NCBI GenBank assembly: GCA_965199495.1 | Contig: CBDASK010000003.1 | Span: 3,648,001 to 3,712,000, forward strand | Length of the DNA: 64,000 bases | Direction of reading: 5' to 3' | DNA from: Abditibacterium sp. | Lineage (GTDB): Bacteria; Armatimonadota; Abditibacteriia; Abditibacteriales; Abditibacteriaceae | Shown: one piece after another, positions 37,663 through 45,755 of the stretch | Layout: every line of letters starts with the position of its first letter | How positions within the stretch are numbered: position 1 is the stretch's first letter | The notes under the pieces: generated by a model | The model's database searches: none | What the model was told of the DNA's origin: nothing | Seen by the model: only the letters and a program-made list of their open reading frames with translations | Position numbers and translations under genes: made by a program

Positions 37663-39321
37663 CTATCGCACCAGACGGATTTGGCCCGGTTTGCCCGGCC
37701 CGTTGCCGGTGTAGGACATATCCCAGACCGAGGTGTCCTGAAGGCCAGCCACATACTCGGCATACCAAGTGCCCGACTCGGCCAGGTTGCGATACGAATC
37801 GGGGATGCGCAGAGTATCGGTGGTGAAGGCGCCGTCCGTTGTCAACGTGCCGGGCCACGATTTGCCGGGGAGTTTGTCGCAGGTATAGGTGATGCTTTTC
37901 GAGTTGATGTCCGTGTCGAACTTGCGGATAATCAGGTCGCTACCGCCCGCTTGCGGCGGAACTTTACCCAGCGTCATTTTGATGGTGCCGCTAATGTTGA
38001 AGTTGATCGGCAAATGTCCCTCCGCCTGAATGCTGGTGCCGTTATTAGGATTGAAATCGGGCGCGGGATTGACTGTCGGAATTTGCCGGGTTCCGTAAAT
38101 GGGGGCGCCATCTGTATAACCAGTCAACTTGCCCTTTTTATTGTAGACGGGTATCTGCTGATAGCCAATAATATATTGCTCAGATGTATAGGTCGTGGTT
38201 TCCTCACGTACAGGGCCAGCGCGCAGGTCAAAGCCGTTTTCGCTCGAACCGCCGGTGCTTGTCACGTTCAGCCGGAAGTTGCCGCCCACGTAATCGCTGC
38301 GGTTAAAGCGAAACGCGTCAATCCATTGCATATCGGTCGTCGAATCGTAGCCCCAGCTATGCGTGCCGATTAAAACATCATCGGATGGCGTGCTGGTGCC
38401 GTGATCCCAGTAGAGCGAATATTTCGTTGTCGTGGCATCGCGCGTGCCGTTTTGGCCGGTGCCTGTTTGCGTGCGGAACTCATCAATGGCACCAGCGGTA
38501 ATGCTCGCGTCCACGATGCCGTTCTTGTTATAGCAATCGGGATCGAAAATTTCGACCGATGTATTTCCTTGAGTCGCGGGCACATTGACGAGAAAATCAT
38601 AACCTTTGGGATTATAGTTGGGGTTGGGAGTTTTGCCATCGTTGAGATACATCGTCGAATAACAGTCTCCGTAGGAATATCTTCCATTGGGGCCGAACAC
38701 CGACAGGTTGACCGGCCCTGGAGCCACGCCGTAGGTGCCCTGACCTTTGATTTCGAGCGGCGCGAGGGTGTCATACAGCGCGGTGGCTGATGCGCTCACG
38801 CCCAACTCTTTGCGGTTGAGCGGCCACATTCCGCTAAACAGCGCGGGTTCGGGACGGCTGAGAGTGACTTTGAACCAGTTGTTGTGCTGTAAGCCCATTT
38901 CGTCAGTGGCCGGATAAGTCACGATGAACTTGGAATTGCCGACGTTGGCCACATAGTTGGAATTGAACCCGCCGGGCAATTTTTTGACATCGGTAAACCC
39001 GCCATTTTCCGGTCGCTCCGCCATTTTTCCGGCGGAAATGTACGCGTCGTAAGAGGTTCCAAAGTTCGCCAGCGTATAGGCGCCCGCCAGCGCCGCCGAA
39101 TCGGCGGCGCGCTGCATCGAGGCTTTGCGTTGGTAGAGCATGCCCACATCAACCACAACGGCAGAAACCATCAAGGCCACCGTCAAACCCAGAGCCGTGT
39201 AGACGAAGGCGACACCACGTCTACGGCGCGCGTGGCGGGGCGAGTGGCGCGTTAGGGGAGTTCCACGCGAAGAAAAATTATTGTCTGACATCTGGAATTT
39301 GGAATCGTTGAAAAAGGGCAT
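37663..39321 (-). CDS. TadG-like pilus-tip protein (Tad N-terminal domain); start may be 39291
   Basis: RRRRGVAFVYTALG...VVDVGMLYQRKASMQRAADSAALAGA. Confidence 0.85.
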   Translation of the reverse strand: MPFFNDSKFQMSDNNFSSRGTPLTRHSPRHARRRRGVAFVYTALGLTVALMVSAVVVDVGMLYQRKASMQRAADSAALAGAYTLANFGTSYDAYISAGKMAERPENGGFTDVKKLPGGFNSNYVANVGNSKFIVTYPATDEMGLQHNNWFKVTLSRPEPALFSGMWPLNRKELGVSASATALYDTLAPLEIKGQGTYGVAPGPVNLSVFGPNGRYSYGDCYSTMYLNDGKTPNPNYNPKGYDFLVNVPATQGNTSVEIFDPDCYNKNGIVDASITAGAIDEFRTQTGTGQNGTRDATTTKYSLYWDHGTSTPSDDVLIGTHSWGYDSTTDMQWIDAFRFNRSDYVGGNFRLNVTSTGGSSENGFDLRAGPVREETTTYTSEQYIIGYQQIPVYNKKGKLTGYTDGAPIYGTRQIPTVNPAPDFNPNNGTSIQAEGHLPINFNISGTIKMTLGKVPPQAGGSDLIIRKFDTDINSKSITYTCDKLPGKSWPGTLTTDGAFTTDTLRIPDSYRNLAESGTWYAEYVAGLQDTSVWDMSYTGNGPGKPGQIRLVR

Positions 39322-39358
39322 GAGCGTAAAATGAGTGGAAAAATGAAACGAAAATTAA

Positions 39359-39952
39359 CTATTCCAACAAAGTTGTCGAAGCCTCAACCCAGTTGCTTTT
39401 TAGAAAACCGAGTTGGAGAGGAGATAATTTTTTGCCGTCGTCGCTCTTGAAAAACAGCGCGCCCAGAAATGAACGTTGGCGCATCGGGTAGGTGATGGTA
39501 ACCGTCAAAGGCTGTCCACTGACGCGCCCAATGGCGTCCGGGGTAATCACAATGCTACCTCCGATTTCTCCCGGATCGGACGGCGTCTTTTTGTTAATGC
39601 GTCCACCATTGATGTCAGTCCACGGAATGCCATTGGCCGCCGCCTGACTCCGCATAAAGTTGAGCATACTGCGCGGTTGTCCCGCCGTATTGCCCTGATT
39701 CACGTCATCGTCGAAGTTATCATCATGATAATGCACCGCAGCCCAACGCGCGCTTTCTCTGGCGACCTGTTGCAGCGAATGCGAGGTGATGAACACCATC
39801 GCCAGTTGGAAGGCGCCCAGTGTGACCGGCAGCAAAACGAAAGTCATGCACAGCGCCGTCTCGATCATCGTGGTGCCGCGCCGTCGCCCGCCCGCAAAAC
39901 GGCGACGGCGCGGATGGCGTTTATTCTGGAAAAGTGCGGAAAAAGAAAGCAT
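39359..39952 (-). CDS. TadE-like pseudopilin
   Basis: RRRGTTMIETAL...LQQVARESARWAA. Confidence 0.88.
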   Translation of the reverse strand: MLSFSALFQNKRHPRRRRFAGGRRRGTTMIETALCMTFVLLPVTLGAFQLAMVFITSHSLQQVARESARWAAVHYHDDNFDDDVNQGNTAGQPRSMLNFMRSQAAANGIPWTDINGGRINKKTPSDPGEIGGSIVITPDAIGRVSGQPLTVTITYPMRQRSFLGALFFKSDDGKKLSPLQLGFLKSNWVEASTTLLE

Positions 39953-39998
39953 GGAGAACTCCCGTAAGAGGAAACAGAAAACGTCGGATGCAACGGCC

Positions 39999-40583
39999 TT
40001 ACTGCATGATGAAAGTCGAGGAAACGGTGTAATCTTTGGACAAAACCGACAGACTCAATGGCGTATCCGGCTTCACCGAATTGTTGATGCGACCGTCCGC
40101 CGCATCGCCGGGCGTCGTTTCTTTCCAAAATCCCAATTGCCCGATAATCGAACGCTTCTTCATCGGGTAGGTGATAGAAACCGTGATCGGTTGGCCGCTG
40201 ATGCGAGAGGGCGAAACCAAAATATTACCTTTGATGTCATTCCACGGAATCTTGTTGGCCTGAGCGACATCTTTCAGGTAATTTTTCAGGCTGGGGTCTT
40301 GGCCATTCCCATCGCCCTGCGTATCCGCACCATCGAAAGTTGCTTCGCCATAATGCAAGGCGGCGAATCGTCCGGCCTCGCGCGAAACTTCCTGCAACGC
40401 GTGCGTCGTCGTCAAAACCAAACCGAACTGCATACCGCCCAACGCGAGTGGCAACAACACGAAAGCCAGACAAAGCGCGGTCTCGACCAAAGTAGAGCCA
40501 CCGCGCCGTCCACGTTGACGCGAGCGCACAAGCAAACCGGAAAATCGATTTGGCGGGGCGAAGGGAAATTGCGAGATTTTCAT
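39999..40583 (-). CDS. TadE-like pseudopilin
   Basis: RRGGSTLVETAL...LQEVSREAGRFAA. Confidence 0.88.
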   Translation of the reverse strand: MKISQFPFAPPNRFSGLLVRSRQRGRRGGSTLVETALCLAFVLLPLALGGMQFGLVLTTTHALQEVSREAGRFAALHYGEATFDGADTQGDGNGQDPSLKNYLKDVAQANKIPWNDIKGNILVSPSRISGQPITVSITYPMKKRSIIGQLGFWKETTPGDAADGRINNSVKPDTPLSLSVLSKDYTVSSTFIMQ

Positions 40584-40818
40584 GTTTTTCGTCGAATTGG
40601 TCGTTGGAAAAAACTTGGTTTTCTCCTTGAATATGCGACAAATTGGCCAATACCAAAACAGCTTATGCCACATCAAACGGCGAAGTTGAGATGAACGTGA
40701 GGGGAGCAAATGTGAACAAAAGAACTTCTTTTGAATTACTTCTCATTTGTAAGAGAAGAGTGAATTCACAGAAAAGCTCACTCTGCGGTAGCGCGAGGTT
40801 TATACTTTTCTCTTCCTC

Positions 40819-42549
40819 ATGAATTCTTCAGAGAACAATACGAACACTCCGGCGCATCGCCAATATTCGGCGATTGTCGTTGACGGCGCCGACCGCGCGG
40901 CTTCGCGCGCCATGTATCACGCCTTGGGCTGGACAGCCGCCGATTTTCAAAAGTCGCAAGTCGGCATCGCCTCGACCTGGAACATGGTCACGCCGTGCAA
41001 TATGCACATAGATAAATTGGCGATTCAAGCCGAGCAGGGCGTCAACGAGGCGGGCGGCAAAGCGATGATTTTCAATACCATCGGCATTTCCGACGGTATT
41101 TCGATGGGCACCGAAGGCATGAAGTATTCCCTCGTTTCGCGCGAAATCATCGCCGATTCCATCGAGGCCGTGGCTGGTTGCGAGGGCATGGACGGCCTCG
41201 TCGCTATCGGCGGCTGCGACAAAAATATGCCCGGCTGTTTGATTGCCCTTGCGCGTCTCAATCGTCCGGCGGTTTTCGTTTATGGCGGCTCGATTTTGCC
41301 CGGTTGCTTAACCGGCGCTGGTTGCGATTTGGACGATCCGACGCAACCCAAGCTCGACATCGTTTCGGTGTTCGAGGCCGTAGGTAGCCACGCCGCCGGG
41401 AAGGTCTCGGATGCGCAACTTCAAGAAGTCGAGCGTCACGCGATTCCCGGCCCCGGCAGTTGCGGCGGCATGTATACCGCCAACACGATGGCGAGCGCCA
41501 TCGAAGCGATGGGCATGAGTTTGCCCGGTTCGAGCGGCCAAATCGCGGTTTCGCCCGCCAAAAAGGTGGACTGCGTGGACGCCGGTCACGCCGTGATGAA
41601 TCTGATCCACAACAGCATTCGCCCGCGCGACATCATGACGCGCCAAGCGTTCGAGAACGCGATTACGGTCGTTATCGCGCTGGGCGGCAGCACAAATGCC
41701 GTGTTGCATTTGTTGGGCATGGCGCACGCCGCCGAAGTCGAATTAAATATTGACGATTTTACCGAAATCGGCAAGCGTGTGCCGGTTCTGGCCGATTTGA
41801 AGCCGTCGGGCAAATATTCGATGGCCGAACTTTCGCGCATCGGCGGCATTCAACCGTTGATGAAACGCTTATTGGCCGCCGGACTTTTGCATGGCGATTG
41901 CCTGACGGTGACCGGCAAAACCGTCGCGCAGAATTTGGCCGAAGTCGAAGATTATCCCGAAAAACAGACGATCATCCGCGATATGAGCGACCCGATTAAA
42001 GCCGATTCACACTTGGTGATTTTCTATGGCAACTTGGCGCCGACGGGCGCGGTTGGCAAAATTTCGGGCAAAGAAGGCACGAGTTTTACCGGCAACGCGC
42101 GCGTTTTCGAGGGCGAAGAACACTGTTTAACCGCGATTTTGGACGGGACAGTTGTCGCGGGCGATGTTTTGGTGATTCGCAGCGAAGGCCCCAAAGGCGG
42201 GCCGGGCATGCGCGAAATGTTGTCGCCGACATCGGCGATTATGGGCAAAGGTTTGGGCAAGGAAGTCGCGCTGATTACCGATGGCCGGTTTAGCGGTGGC
42301 TCGCACGGTTTCGTCGTCGGTCACATCACGCCCGAAGCGTTCGAGGGTGGCCCCATTGCACTCGTTCGAGACGGCGACCAAATCACGATTGACGCCAACA
42401 AACGCGAAATCACGTTGGATATTTCCGACGCCGAAATGAACGAACGCCGTTTGGCGTGGCAACCGATGCAGCCACGTTACAAGCGCGGCGTGCTGGCAAA
42501 ATACGCGTCGCAAGTTTCGAGCGCCTCGACGGGCGCGGTCACCGATTAA
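40819..42549 (+). CDS. ilvD: Dihydroxy-acid dehydratase
   Basis: [61 protein letters not shown]. Confidence 0.98.
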
Positions 42550-42608
42550 TTCTGGCAAAAGAAAAGGCGCCCCCAACGCGAACTGCCTCTTCTTGTTTTG
42601 CCTGTCGG

Positions 42609-43277
42609 TCAACTTCCGTCCGATTTCTTGCAAAGATAGAAGCGGACGCCGTAGGGATAGACGCTGGGATAATACTGCTGGCCTTGTAACGACCAAAATC
42701 CAAAGAGATTGAGATTGGCGTGAATTTCTATGGGCCAACCGGTAATATGTTGTCCGACGAGACGCACGAACCAAGGCATCGAACTGGGATTGATAAGACC
42801 TTCGCCCCAAAACAAGGTTTGACCTTGGCAAATGGTGATGAAGTTGAGGTAAGTTCCGAATTGGCGGATGCAAGTTTCGGGCAACGCGCCCGGAGCTTGC
42901 GGCCCGGACGCGTTATAGCCGAACTGTGGCATCGGTGCTGGCACGCAAAATTGATCGTTGGGATTAAACCAGACACCCGTCATATCAACGCCGTTGAAGC
43001 CCTGGGTCTCTTGCACAATCCATGGCTGCTGGGACGTTTGTTCGACTGGCGCGACCGGTGGCGGAGCTGTGGGTTTGCCTTGTTCGGGGGCGGCCAGAGC
43101 TTTTTTTAAGGCTTCGAGAACAGTGCGTAAATCTTCATCCGAGGATGTTTTATCTACCCCGGACGAAAGATTTATGACGTATTGGTTGATGTCGCGCGCC
43201 GCATTGTTTTGATTGCCCGCGACGTTAGATTGTTCGTGGACGCGCTGATCTTCTTGGCCGAAGGTCGGATTGTCCAT
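42609..43277 (-). CDS. Hypothetical protein with N-terminal Q/N-rich motif, Pro-rich linker and predicted beta-rich C-terminal domain
   Basis: 222 aa from ATG 43277, which overlaps the upstream stop (TGATG). Confidence 0.75.
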   Translation of the reverse strand: MDNPTFGQEDQRVHEQSNVAGNQNNAARDINQYVINLSSGVDKTSSDEDLRTVLEALKKALAAPEQGKPTAPPPVAPVEQTSQQPWIVQETQGFNGVDMTGVWFNPNDQFCVPAPMPQFGYNASGPQAPGALPETCIRQFGTYLNFITICQGQTLFWGEGLINPSSMPWFVRLVGQHITGWPIEIHANLNLFGFWSLQGQQYYPSVYPYGVRFYLCKKSDGS

Positions 43278-43663
43278 CAGAGCGGGACACCTTGGACGAG
43301 TCCGTAAGTTTTGACCAACAGCGCGACGATGCCACCGACTTTTTCGATGCCTTCGAGGCAATCTTTGGCGTTGCCCAGATAATCCAGCAGCGAATGTTTG
43401 TCGGGGTCAGGCTCTTTGGCGATTTGCGCGGCTTTGGTGATGTTGTATTTTGCCTCGGTTTCAATGTCTTCGTTGATAGCGCCGTCTTGCCGCGCGTGGG
43501 CGAGTTGCCCTTTGAGGTCTTCCAAATTTTGCAACACCTCTTGCTGGACTTCACCAAAAGTCGCGTCGCCGCTCTTGATGTTTTGATTGCCCCCAATGTT
43601 TTGATTGCCGCCGATATTGTGCTGATTTTGCACTTGCTGACCCTGTTGGTTGAACGTGGACAT
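43277..43663 (-). CDS. Small protein with N-terminal Q/N/G-rich motif and helical C-terminal domain
   Basis: 128 aa; AGGAGG Shine-Dalgarno 5 nt before ATG 43663; MSTFNQQGQQVQNQHNIGGNQNIGGNQNI. Confidence 0.8.
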   Translation of the reverse strand: MSTFNQQGQQVQNQHNIGGNQNIGGNQNIKSGDATFGEVQQEVLQNLEDLKGQLAHARQDGAINEDIETEAKYNITKAAQIAKEPDPDKHSLLDYLGNAKDCLEGIEKVGGIVALLVKTYGLVQGVPL

Positions 43664-43775
43664 GAAATCCTCCTGCGCGCCAGTCCGCACAAAAACAATC
43701 CGTCGAGCTAACGCGCTCTCCCACCAGTTTATAACAGTTATCGCAGTAAAAGTCAAATGAGGCATCTTCGTGGGG

Positions 43776-43945
43776 TATAGCGAATCCGAAAAGTATCGTC
43801 CTCTATGACAGCGGGGCTTGCGCCTCCTTCCAATCGGTGATATGTGAGGCTTTCCCCAGGGAAAGTAGGCGCAAGCCCCACTGCGAGTTTGGCCGTTTAA
43901 AAGGGAGATATCTTAATCAAGACAATCGCTTTCGGATTTGCTATA
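43776..43945. repeat. Nested inverted repeats (outer TATAGCGAATCCGAAA arm, inner degenerate family C)
   Basis: TATAGCGAATCCGAAA / TTTCGGATTTGCTATA enclosing GCGGGGCTTGCGCCT...AGGCGCAAGCCCCAC. Confidence 0.65.
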
Positions 43946-43982: not shown

Positions 43983-44057
43983 CGTTATTATCGCGGCGTG
44001 TTAGCGAAATACGCCAAACAAGTTTCGAGCGCCTCGACGGGCGCAGTCACCGATTAA
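43983..44057 (+). pseudogene. Second, diverged copy of the last 24 codons plus stop of ilvD
   Basis: [24 protein letters not shown] versus [24 protein letters not shown] (42475-42549). Confidence 0.9.
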
Positions 44058-44107
44058 GCAATTTGCCAGTTCTTAACGTCTGCATGAGGAAAAGTAAAAC
44101 CAGAAAC

Positions 44108-44142
44108 AAAAAAGCGAACCGGAGAAATCCGGTTCGCTTTTC
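44108..44142. terminator. Bidirectional intrinsic terminator
   Basis: AAAAAAGCGAACCGGA-GAAA-TCCGGTTCGCTTTT. Confidence 0.75.
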
Positions 44143-44163
44143 TATTTTTTACGTTCGCAACGT

Positions 44164-45039
44164 TTACGCGATGATAAACGGTGCGACGCGCTTTTGCACT
44201 TCGGGCACTTCGAGCGCGATTTCCATCGCTGTTGGCGAGGGATTCATGTTATTCATGAACCGAATAACGCTGGTGTGGCGGGTTTCGATGCCATAAATTG
44301 AAGCGGCAAATTTCAGCGCATCCACGCTATCGAGCTTGGGGGCGGCACCTAAATAAGCGCCAACGCCGGTCTCTTCAAACGTTCCGGCCAGCGTCAAAAA
44401 CGCGACTTGCGAAACGTAAACATTCGCGGGAAATTGGAAGTTCGGTTTGGCAACGGGCGTGCCGTTGGCGCGACCAATGACATCCAAAATCGCCGTGACG
44501 TGGGCCGCTTCGTCGTCGGCGATGCCCTGCGTGATTTTGGCGACGGCGGGCGACAAGTAAGCGCGCGTGTTATTGGCTTCGACAATGCTGGCGTAGAAAG
44601 TCGCTTCCAAATATTCCAGTCCCAACGCGAAGTTGAGAATGTCGGCGTCGCTGGCGGAGGCGTGTTTGCCCGCGCCGGGAATCGTCAGGGCCGGATTGTT
44701 CGGGTTGATTTTGGTGCTGGGAACATTAGAATTGCTCTCAACGGCCTGATCGGCTGTGGGGGCGGGCGGCGGCGTATCCATTGCCATTTTGTCGTTCTGG
44801 CCCATGATCATCATGCCGTCCATCATTTTGCCATCATTCATCATTCCATCGTTCATCATGGTACCATCTTTCGCCATCGTGCCGTCTTTCGCCATCGAAC
44901 CATCTTGCGCCTGAGCGCGCGTGGCGGCGGTGGCTGTTGCGGCGAGGCCGACCATGAAAGCGGCATGTTTGAGCCAATCGCGGCGCGAAGTGTCGCGGGC
45001 GGTGGCATTAAGTTGCGTGCTATTGAGTGATTTGTTCAT
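44164..45039 (-). CDS. Tat-exported ferritin-like domain protein with Met-rich repeats
   Basis: SRRDWLK Tat motif; DILNFALGLEYLEATFY, DEAAH, FEETGVGAYLGAA, IETRH. Confidence 0.88.
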   Translation of the reverse strand: MNKSLNSTQLNATARDTSRRDWLKHAAFMVGLAATATAATRAQAQDGSMAKDGTMAKDGTMMNDGMMNDGKMMDGMMIMGQNDKMAMDTPPPAPTADQAVESNSNVPSTKINPNNPALTIPGAGKHASASDADILNFALGLEYLEATFYASIVEANNTRAYLSPAVAKITQGIADDEAAHVTAILDVIGRANGTPVAKPNFQFPANVYVSQVAFLTLAGTFEETGVGAYLGAAPKLDSVDALKFAASIYGIETRHTSVIRFMNNMNPSPTAMEIALEVPEVQKRVAPFIIA

Positions 45040-45755
45040 CGAGGTGCGCCTCCCTTGAAGCCGTATTTGGCCAATTTGTAACCGGTGGTCTGTGCGCCAT
45101 AAGCGCCTTCAAACGGCGCGGTGCTGGGCTTGAGACCAACGACCTGACGCAAAACTGCGGCATGACGGCCTTCAATTCCAGCGATGGCGGCGGCGGTCGA
45201 AAGCAACTTTTTGTTGCGCACGATGCCAACGGCTCCGTGATAGCCGAACAAAACGGTTTCTTTCACATCCAATGCGGTATTCAAAATGTCCTCGCGCGTG
45301 CTGAGGCTGGGATATTTGAACGCGCGCGGACGGCGCGAAGCGAAAGTATTAAGCGTCTCCGATTCGCCCGCGTCTTTATAGCCGAACGCGTCGCGCGCGG
45401 CATTCAAGATTTGATAATGCTCGGCGTCCTGCGAAGCCATCAACGTGATGATGTTGCGTTCTTGTCCGGTTAGCGAAGCGTAACCTTTGCTGCGCGTGAG
45501 GCGAGTGTAGATGTCTTGTTCCAACTCTTCCATTTCAAACGCGAAGTTCAAAACAATGGAATCGAGGTAGAAAAGTTTGCCGATTTTGGCGACCAAGTCG
45601 GCGCGCGCGGGGTTAAAGAGCGCCGAGGCGATAGTCACGCCGCAAGTCGCCGTCGCCATCGTGAGCAGTTGCCGACGCGTTGCCGACATACTTTCGAGCG
45701 GTGCGACGATGCGACGTTCCAGCGAGGGCGCCACTTCTTCATTTGGGTTCGTCAT
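45036..45755 (-). CDS. Tat-exported ferritin-like domain protein
   Basis: TRRQLL; VLNFAFEMEELE, QDAEH, AIAGIEGRHAA; stop overlaps the next start. Confidence 0.8.
   Translation of the reverse strand: MTNPNEEVAPSLERRIVAPLESMSATRRQLLTMATATCGVTIASALFNPARADLVAKIGKLFYLDSIVLNFAFEMEELEQDIYTRLTRSKGYASLTGQERNIITLMASQDAEHYQILNAARDAFGYKDAGESETLNTFASRRPRAFKYPSLSTREDILNTALDVKETVLFGYHGAVGIVRNKKLLSTAAAIAGIEGRHAAVLRQVVGLKPSTAPFEGAYGAQTTGYKLAKYGFKGGAPR

Follow-up and report, generated by a model that had tools for sequence, protein, structure and literature searches.

Two adjacent genes in a small islet of Abditibacterium sp. begin with the same Q/N/G-rich motif, and this shared motif is a real feature of the pair. 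It is best read as an amyloid coupling like those of the BASS and Bab/Agp systems, with the polarity of the effector reversed. The balance leans slightly towards a mechanism in which the motif of the second gene, B, templates the product of the first, A, into a shared cross-beta assembly and switches on the helical domain of A, the predicted membrane-acting or growth-arresting defense effector. The window, i.e., the whole stretch of DNA analyzed, is 64,000 nt long; the features of the islet are listed in Table 1.

Table 1. Coordinates of the gene pair and its surroundings (position 1 is the first letter of the window).
Feature	Positions	Strand	Remarks
Gene A	43277-43663	-	128 aa; N-terminal Q/N/G motif and predicted four-helix bundle
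Gene B	42609-43277	-	222 aa; motif, short helix, Pro-rich linker, aromatic beta-rich domain
Motif of A, residues 3-30	43574-43657	-	low pLDDT as monomer
Motif of B, residues 5-31	43185-43265	-	second half-repeat NNAARDIN
RBS of gene A	43669-43674	-	AGGAGG, 5 nt before ATG
Helix 4 of A	43289-43345	-	most hydrophobic helix; candidate membrane helix
Left direct repeat	42475-42549	+	present 3' end of ilvD (gene 40819-42549)
Right direct repeat	43983-44057	+	second copy of the ilvD 3' end, in-frame-codable
Terminator-like hairpin	44104-44147		after right repeat
REP-like palindrome	43809-43883	.	21-nt arms; dozens of similar genome copies

The two genes are translationally coupled by a TGATG overlap (43275-43279), and a strong ribosome binding site precedes the first one, both as given in the preliminary description. 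Residues 3-22 of A and 5-24 of B are identical at 11 of 20 positions, and their DNA at 40 of 60 nt. The similarity lies above shuffled controls: in 20,000 shuffles of the motif of B, neither 11/20 identity nor a local score of 63 was attained. Among the 41,754 frames of the genome, the pattern N[IV][AG]G[ND]Q[NT] matches just A and B, while [QN].N[IVA][AG][GR][DN][IQV] adds one unrelated frame. A motif profile made from 73 relatives of A, with A itself left out, gave 41 bits for A and 16 bits (16.2) for B, the sole matches of at least 12 bits in the same frames. The residues GNQN occur in both window motifs and in none of the 73 other family A starts; two of these 73 motifs score equally well against the motif of B. 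An 18-nt tandem duplication coding for NIGGNQ twice in A is indeed present, but it is imperfect (15/18 nt), all three differences being synonymous. A public-run contig, possibly from the same sample as the source, spans 42088-43838 with zero differing letters.

The family of A surfaced only in one full HMMER search of all libraries, with 231 relatives at E ≤ 0.001; word-index searches gave no relative of A. No match to A or B was found by tblastn against plasmids, and Pfam and NCBIfam returned nothing significant for either protein; viral contigs hold one weak partial locus. Most hosts with a name belong to the Cyanobacteria and Chloroflexota; a few other phyla and a single archaeon are also represented. 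The family is sporadic (4/400 and 5/300 sampled genomes, besides the centre genome). Its composition was counted on the best 150 of the 231 relatives: together with gene A, 83 proteins have at most 160 aa and 68 are longer. The 74 aligned short members, A included, have the consensus MxxFDQRGQxVxxQYNAxGDINFG, followed by the helical domain. Gene A is 30-45% identical to its relatives and keeps the conserved positions.

A helical domain with a hydrophobic end had been proposed for A, and the AlphaFold2 model is in agreement with it: four high-confidence helices (residues 36-59, 65-82, 89-103 and 107-125) form a predicted bundle, the last helix being hydrophobic, and the motif has no confident structure. 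Helix 4 has a mean Eisenberg hydrophobicity of 0.37 in A; in the family, its value is 0.29 and that of helices 1-3 about -0.05, and two F/L residues are found near the C-terminus in 51 of the 74 members. For helix 4 of A, the hydrophobic moment is 0.20 versus a family mean of 0.36, and the usual terminal LF or FF is missing. Foldseek gave no match to the bundle at E ≤ 0.001; in the fold search, the best Z was 13.0, with unrelated entries close below. In the ESM Atlas, A falls with unnamed clusters and with a cluster, at 0.91, in which 16% of the members are labeled DUF4404. As modeled, the bundle resembles generic four-helix folds only, and a pore role is thus without structural support. Bell, HeLo and MLKL chains were not among the matches listed in the fold searches of A, which does not amount to their exclusion.

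The motif is not only conserved in the relatives of A but also paired at most of their stand-alone loci. Two pattern scans, with the metagenome scan represented by the best 80 of 104 matches, provided 120 loci. Motif and helices share a frame in 114 of them, of which 110 are intact; at 90%, these form 90 clusters. After leaving out seven loci with short flanks and three with an unclear start, the downstream gene starts with the motif at 48 of the 61 stand-alone A loci versus 3 of the 19 fused ones (90% dereplication). At 70% dereplication, the counts are 25/34 and 2/16, from kin that are not independent. The partner begins within 50 nt of the stop of A in 37 of the 48 cases. That both motifs are N-terminal, first said of the window pair, is a feature of the stand-alone members of the family. 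Some of the 13 unpaired loci have a motif gene that lies upstream, farther off or below the score cut (L039, L046, L062, L063, L084, L133).

The partners are diverse. Twelve of the 48 are NLR/STAND ATPases, 11 of them with a Walker A pattern and the twelfth assigned to nSTAND1 by Pfam; no NTPase was detected in 30 complete partners, and the remaining six are cut off. The pair had been called NLR-free, which is right for B and for most partners, but the system as a kind is not, given these twelve. Domains found by Pfam include NB-ARC, NACHT, nSTAND1 and TPR proteins; the partners without NTPase include TPR-like proteins that form a cyanobacterial group, others with coiled coil/SH3, zinc-finger proteins, a receiver-domain protein and small beta proteins.

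Some loci are organized differently. Two or three motif-bearing partners per A gene are present at L058 (5450-7897), L148 (267-1257), L085 and L101, tandem zinc-finger paralogues among them. A TPR-like partner of ~170 aa recurs in cyanobacteria and Chloroflexota (L041:6395-6904); in at least two loci, the TPR-like partner is followed by a ~260-aa membrane protein (L039:6908-7684, L084:2707-3516), possibly a three-gene subtype. At L173:686-1960 and L174:1308-2633, the matching motif is C-terminal on upstream genes whose N-terminus looks FHA-like by eye, a further polarity variant.

If the motif couples the two proteins, it should co-vary within gene pairs, as the preliminary description had proposed to examine. 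Among 31 pattern-selected pairs, the co-variation was weak (own-pair motif score 53.9 versus 50.7), and it was gone when the nearest relative served as comparison (14 better, 13 worse, 4 tied). Since the A motifs of this set had been chosen alike, a search with the helical part only was made. It gave 36 loci with a helical match, of which 34 were testable: 25 found by the helices only, eight by the full profile, and the window. Here, where the motif of A differs, that of the neighbor differs with it: scored against the segment that precedes the helices, own-locus neighbors have a mean of 50, those of other loci 30. The own locus ranks first in 12 of 34 cases, and in 11 of 21 after 50% dereplication; gene A is the best match to the locus of B among the 34. 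The permutation p is at the floor of 50,000 draws, with the reservation that kin are not independent and that the statistic does not separate the presence of a partner from the match to it. At seven loci (L168, L169, L173, L174, L201, L202, L203), distinct G/N/Q-rich motifs each recur in an adjacent NACHT, FHA or unnamed gene. The most distant helical matches (<55 bits) may be sister domains. A family-wide recent duplication of the motif DNA is not supported, codon identity being 0.46 within pairs versus 0.42 across pairs.

The long forms often carry the motif and helices behind another domain. Among the 68 of them (from the best 150 of 231 relatives), Pfam identifies AbiTii in 28, caspase in three and EAD1 in three, and TIR, CHAT, HetE-N, TPR, DUF2513 and zinc ribbon in one each; most others have no Pfam match. 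An ATG is placed at motif position 1 in 17 of 20 fused genes, and a Shine-Dalgarno sequence with ATG at the motif start in 15 of 20; elsewhere in these genes, the same combination occurs at 4 of 51 internal ATGs. Such loci include L128:402-1385, L100:478-1506, L139:1682-2791 and L141:1934-2950. In the AbiTii fusions, Met directly precedes the motif in 22 of 28, and Val in three more; an internal Met exists in only one of the nine caspase, TIR, CHAT, EAD1 and HetE-N fusions. As the internal start signals are retained at the motif, the fused genes likely yield a long and a short product, judging by the sequence, and the neighbor would be missing at fused loci because both partners would come from one gene. 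Alternatively, these signals are vestiges of a recent fusion. The known and the reversed architectures meet in P0043 (249 aa), a single chain that contains a Bell-like HetE-N domain as well as the motif and the four-helix module.

The closest known systems are the Bell-BASS/NLR pairs (BASS1-10 and other BASS) and Bab/Agp. According to the accessible text on the former, they too consist of adjacent, often overlapping genes with a common ~25-aa motif rich in Q/N/G/V/I, the small helical protein lies upstream of its partner, the motif on the helical side may be pseudo-repeated, and the hosts are mostly Cyanobacteria and Chloroflexota, like those of the A family. The order of the parts differs. 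Bell proteins have the hydrophobic helix at the N-terminus and the motif at the C-terminus, with the motif N-terminal on the NLRs (Dyrka et al., 10.1101/2020.01.06.895854, accessible text), whereas in A the motif comes first and the hydrophobic helix last. Furthermore, Bell-BASS partners are NACHT/NB-ARC NLRs, unlike B and most A-family partners, which have no NTPase. Bell-like HetE-N was not recognized in A by Pfam, and the comparison with the HetE-N part of P0043 gave a probability of 1%. Nested internal starts are not mentioned for Bell-BASS in the accessible text of 10.1101/2020.01.06.895854 or PMC8086366.

Bab/Agp (BASS11) of E. coli ECOR25 is described in the available part of 10.1101/2024.11.07.622273 as an NLR-free, amyloid-dependent abortive infection system with the same polarity as BASS; an NLR-free amyloid defense is therefore not new. 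As here, two adjacent genes without NLR encode a small helical protein and its partner, which carries the motif at the N-terminus. In Bab, on the contrary, a MEPIS-type helix stands at the N-terminus and the motif at the C-terminus, the reverse of A, and Agp is a 1094-aa TPR-GreA/B-PIN protein, while B has 222 aa and none of these domains. The A/B pair would work like BASS and Bab/Agp without being a member of either, judging by the features compared: the motif is N-terminal on A, no Bell domain is recognized in A, and there is no NLR or TPR-GreA/B-PIN partner.

The motif itself has a published counterpart. In the accessible text of PMC8086366, the NLR-side peptide of Methanothrix AEB69175.1(5-29), which contains FDQRGQ, forms beta-aggregates by FTIR and stains with Congo red, and a related archaeal motif is called BASS3-like. 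FDQR-type sequences also appear there as isolated entries in the Bell-side datasets, singly in classes C02 and C09, among the entries listed. The PADLOC candidate PDC-M14B (Payne et al., 10.1101/2024.01.29.577857) is a ~267-aa profile whose C-terminal ~100 positions are weakly matched by the A family: 53 of the 74 members reach E ≤ 0.01, with 1e-7 as the best value and 0.005 for gene A. Gene B has no PADLOC profile at E ≤ 0.001, and M14 is not named in the main text of 10.1101/2024.01.29.577857, as far as accessible.

A short shared motif also serves as the coupling device of fungal HET-S/NWD2 and of metazoan RHIM proteins. In HET-S, the HeLo domain comes first and the motif last. The motif here presumably follows a RHIM-like beta-turn-beta pattern, and neither A nor B matches the Pfam RHIM or HET-s models.

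Neither a reversed effector nor AbiTii with amyloid was found described in the accessible text of the literature searched, and a reversed effector is absent from the accessible passages of PMC13506858, PMC9815663, PMC10907252, PMC8195603, 10.1101/2024.01.29.577857 and PMC12261475. Such a class would have been missed by design, as the published screens, according to the accessible text of 10.1101/2020.01.06.895854, covered just the C-terminal ends of Bell proteins and, for NLRs, the N-terminal ends. If true, it would make many small proteins candidate phage or stress sensors, provide a mechanism for the AbiTii fusions, and allow a test of whether a bundle can free its pore helix at either end. 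The units are small and easy to test (here, 128 + 222 aa), and the family supplies matched and mismatched motif pairs for swap experiments.

Under the slightly favored mechanism, B or its counterpart would oligomerize on a trigger, and the motif of this partner would nucleate a cross-beta stack that the motif of A joins; the bundle would then open and free helix 4. In the AbiTii-type fusions, the long product would be the partner and the internally started short product would take the place of A. By analogy, the composition of the motif and the published related peptide suggest an amyloid structure. Signaling would run from B to A, since A is the constant member and NLR sensors often occupy the variable partner slot. 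If it acts through its hydrophobic last helix, A would be the mirror image of Bell/HeLo, and an anti-phage role is presumed. A wider proposal is plausible, although the odds are somewhat against it: an unnamed four-helix death or arrest domain, with the motif first and the membrane helix last, would be a general output module of bacterial immunity that plugs into NLRs and many small non-NLR sensors via interchangeable, co-evolving amyloid tags, AbiTii-type fusions making sensor and effector from one gene by an internal in-frame start.

The module also trails caspase, TIR, CHAT, EAD1 and HetE-N effectors, and this position behind classical effectors, with few internal Met, fits an adaptor as well as a killer. 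The motif could then be a homotypic docking element or a short beta-strand tag, perhaps without long fibrils, and A an adaptor, cap or inhibitor, as a detachable helical end-piece that restrains or scaffolds its partner (NLR, AbiTii, TIR, caspase) and does not kill alone. The generic bundle fold would suit this role, and an excess of short product from the internal start is what an antitoxin or regulator would need. However, for most complete non-NTPase partners, Pfam lists TPR, SH3, Zn finger or no domain at all, and no enzymatic effector domain, the NLR partners begin directly with the motif, leaving A as the sole constant candidate output, and the composition (Q+N+G 36%, P+L+K 3%) fits the BASS bias in the accessible text of 10.1101/2020.01.06.895854. 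We consider this explanation rather unlikely.

Less can be said about gene B. In Pfam, it has no NTPase and matches none of the Agp-type domains (TPR, GreA/B, PIN); its assignment as the sensor would follow from the partner slot that it occupies, no relatives of B having been found in word-index searches or by tblastn against plasmids, the first of which also missed the family of A. A single-sequence model of its domain reaches a pLDDT of 34, and the ESM Atlas offers scores below 0.9, including an avidin-labeled cluster at 0.85 (16% of members), which is a lead only. The preliminary description had presented A and B as otherwise unrelated. This has to be corrected: residues 5-65 of B align with the motif and first helix of the A-family profile (20.3 bits, from another profile than the 16.2 bits of the motif alone), and its N-terminus may derive from an A-type gene.

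This alignment opens the question of whether, in a family system that is real, the present copy is a by-product: B would be a chimera of an A-type 5' end (motif and first helix) with unrelated sequence, the motif shared by descent, and the pair may do nothing here. Codons are identical at 7 of the 11 identical residues, no relatives of B were recovered by the searches just named, and the islet is tiny and was not found in 26 relatives of the same family. On the other hand, both frames are intact and coupled, A has kept the conserved positions despite its low identity to relatives, and the pattern of the motif persists with its DNA diverged at 20 of 60 nt. One-off partners are, moreover, normal among family A loci, and the search for B was less sensitive than the all-library one that found the family of A. 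Such a by-product is improbable. Chance similarity of low-complexity Q/N content, for which only the 71% Q/N/G of the motif of A could speak, is refuted by the shuffles, by the independent profile that picks just A and B in the genome and by the pairing in 48/61 loci, and its probability is negligible.

The gene pair had been placed in an acquired island, and acquisition is well supported. The pair sits in a 1.43-kb islet, convergent with ilvD, with a GC content of 0.518 versus 0.557 for the main contig. On either side of the islet lies a copy of the last 75 nt of ilvD, the two being 85% identical. The right copy, with the terminator-like hairpin behind it, is likely the displaced original end of the gene, as it has the residues AKQ in common with the ilvD of the closest relative, while the present gene has ASQ (one residue). 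A search of 60 relatives, including 26 from the same family, did not reveal gene A, and the A profile matches 1 of 300 other genomes of the phylum. No integrase was seen by eye in the first 70 residues of the long frames of the window, and no sigma-70-like promoter was found. The REP-like palindrome, whose copies in the genome often form inverted pairs ~70 nt apart, is probably a host repeat inside the islet and not part of the system.

In the same genus, locus L033 (G006) contains a 59-codon duplicate of the ilvD 3' end ~1.5 kb downstream, which encloses a 401-aa WD40-like gene (L033:4528-6052). This is the only duplicated ilvD end among the 21 relative loci checked, and it surrounds a different gene; insertion may recur at the 3' end of ilvD. 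Upstream of ilvD, a TadE/TadG-like pseudopilin cluster was recognized by eye (37663-40709, minus strand); by blastn, the closest long relative locus, L026, lacks this cluster at the corresponding place. On the other side of the islet, two adjacent minus-strand genes (44164-45039 and 45036-45755) appear by eye to encode ferritin-like proteins with twin-arginine-type leaders, the first with a Met/Asp/Gly-rich repeat.
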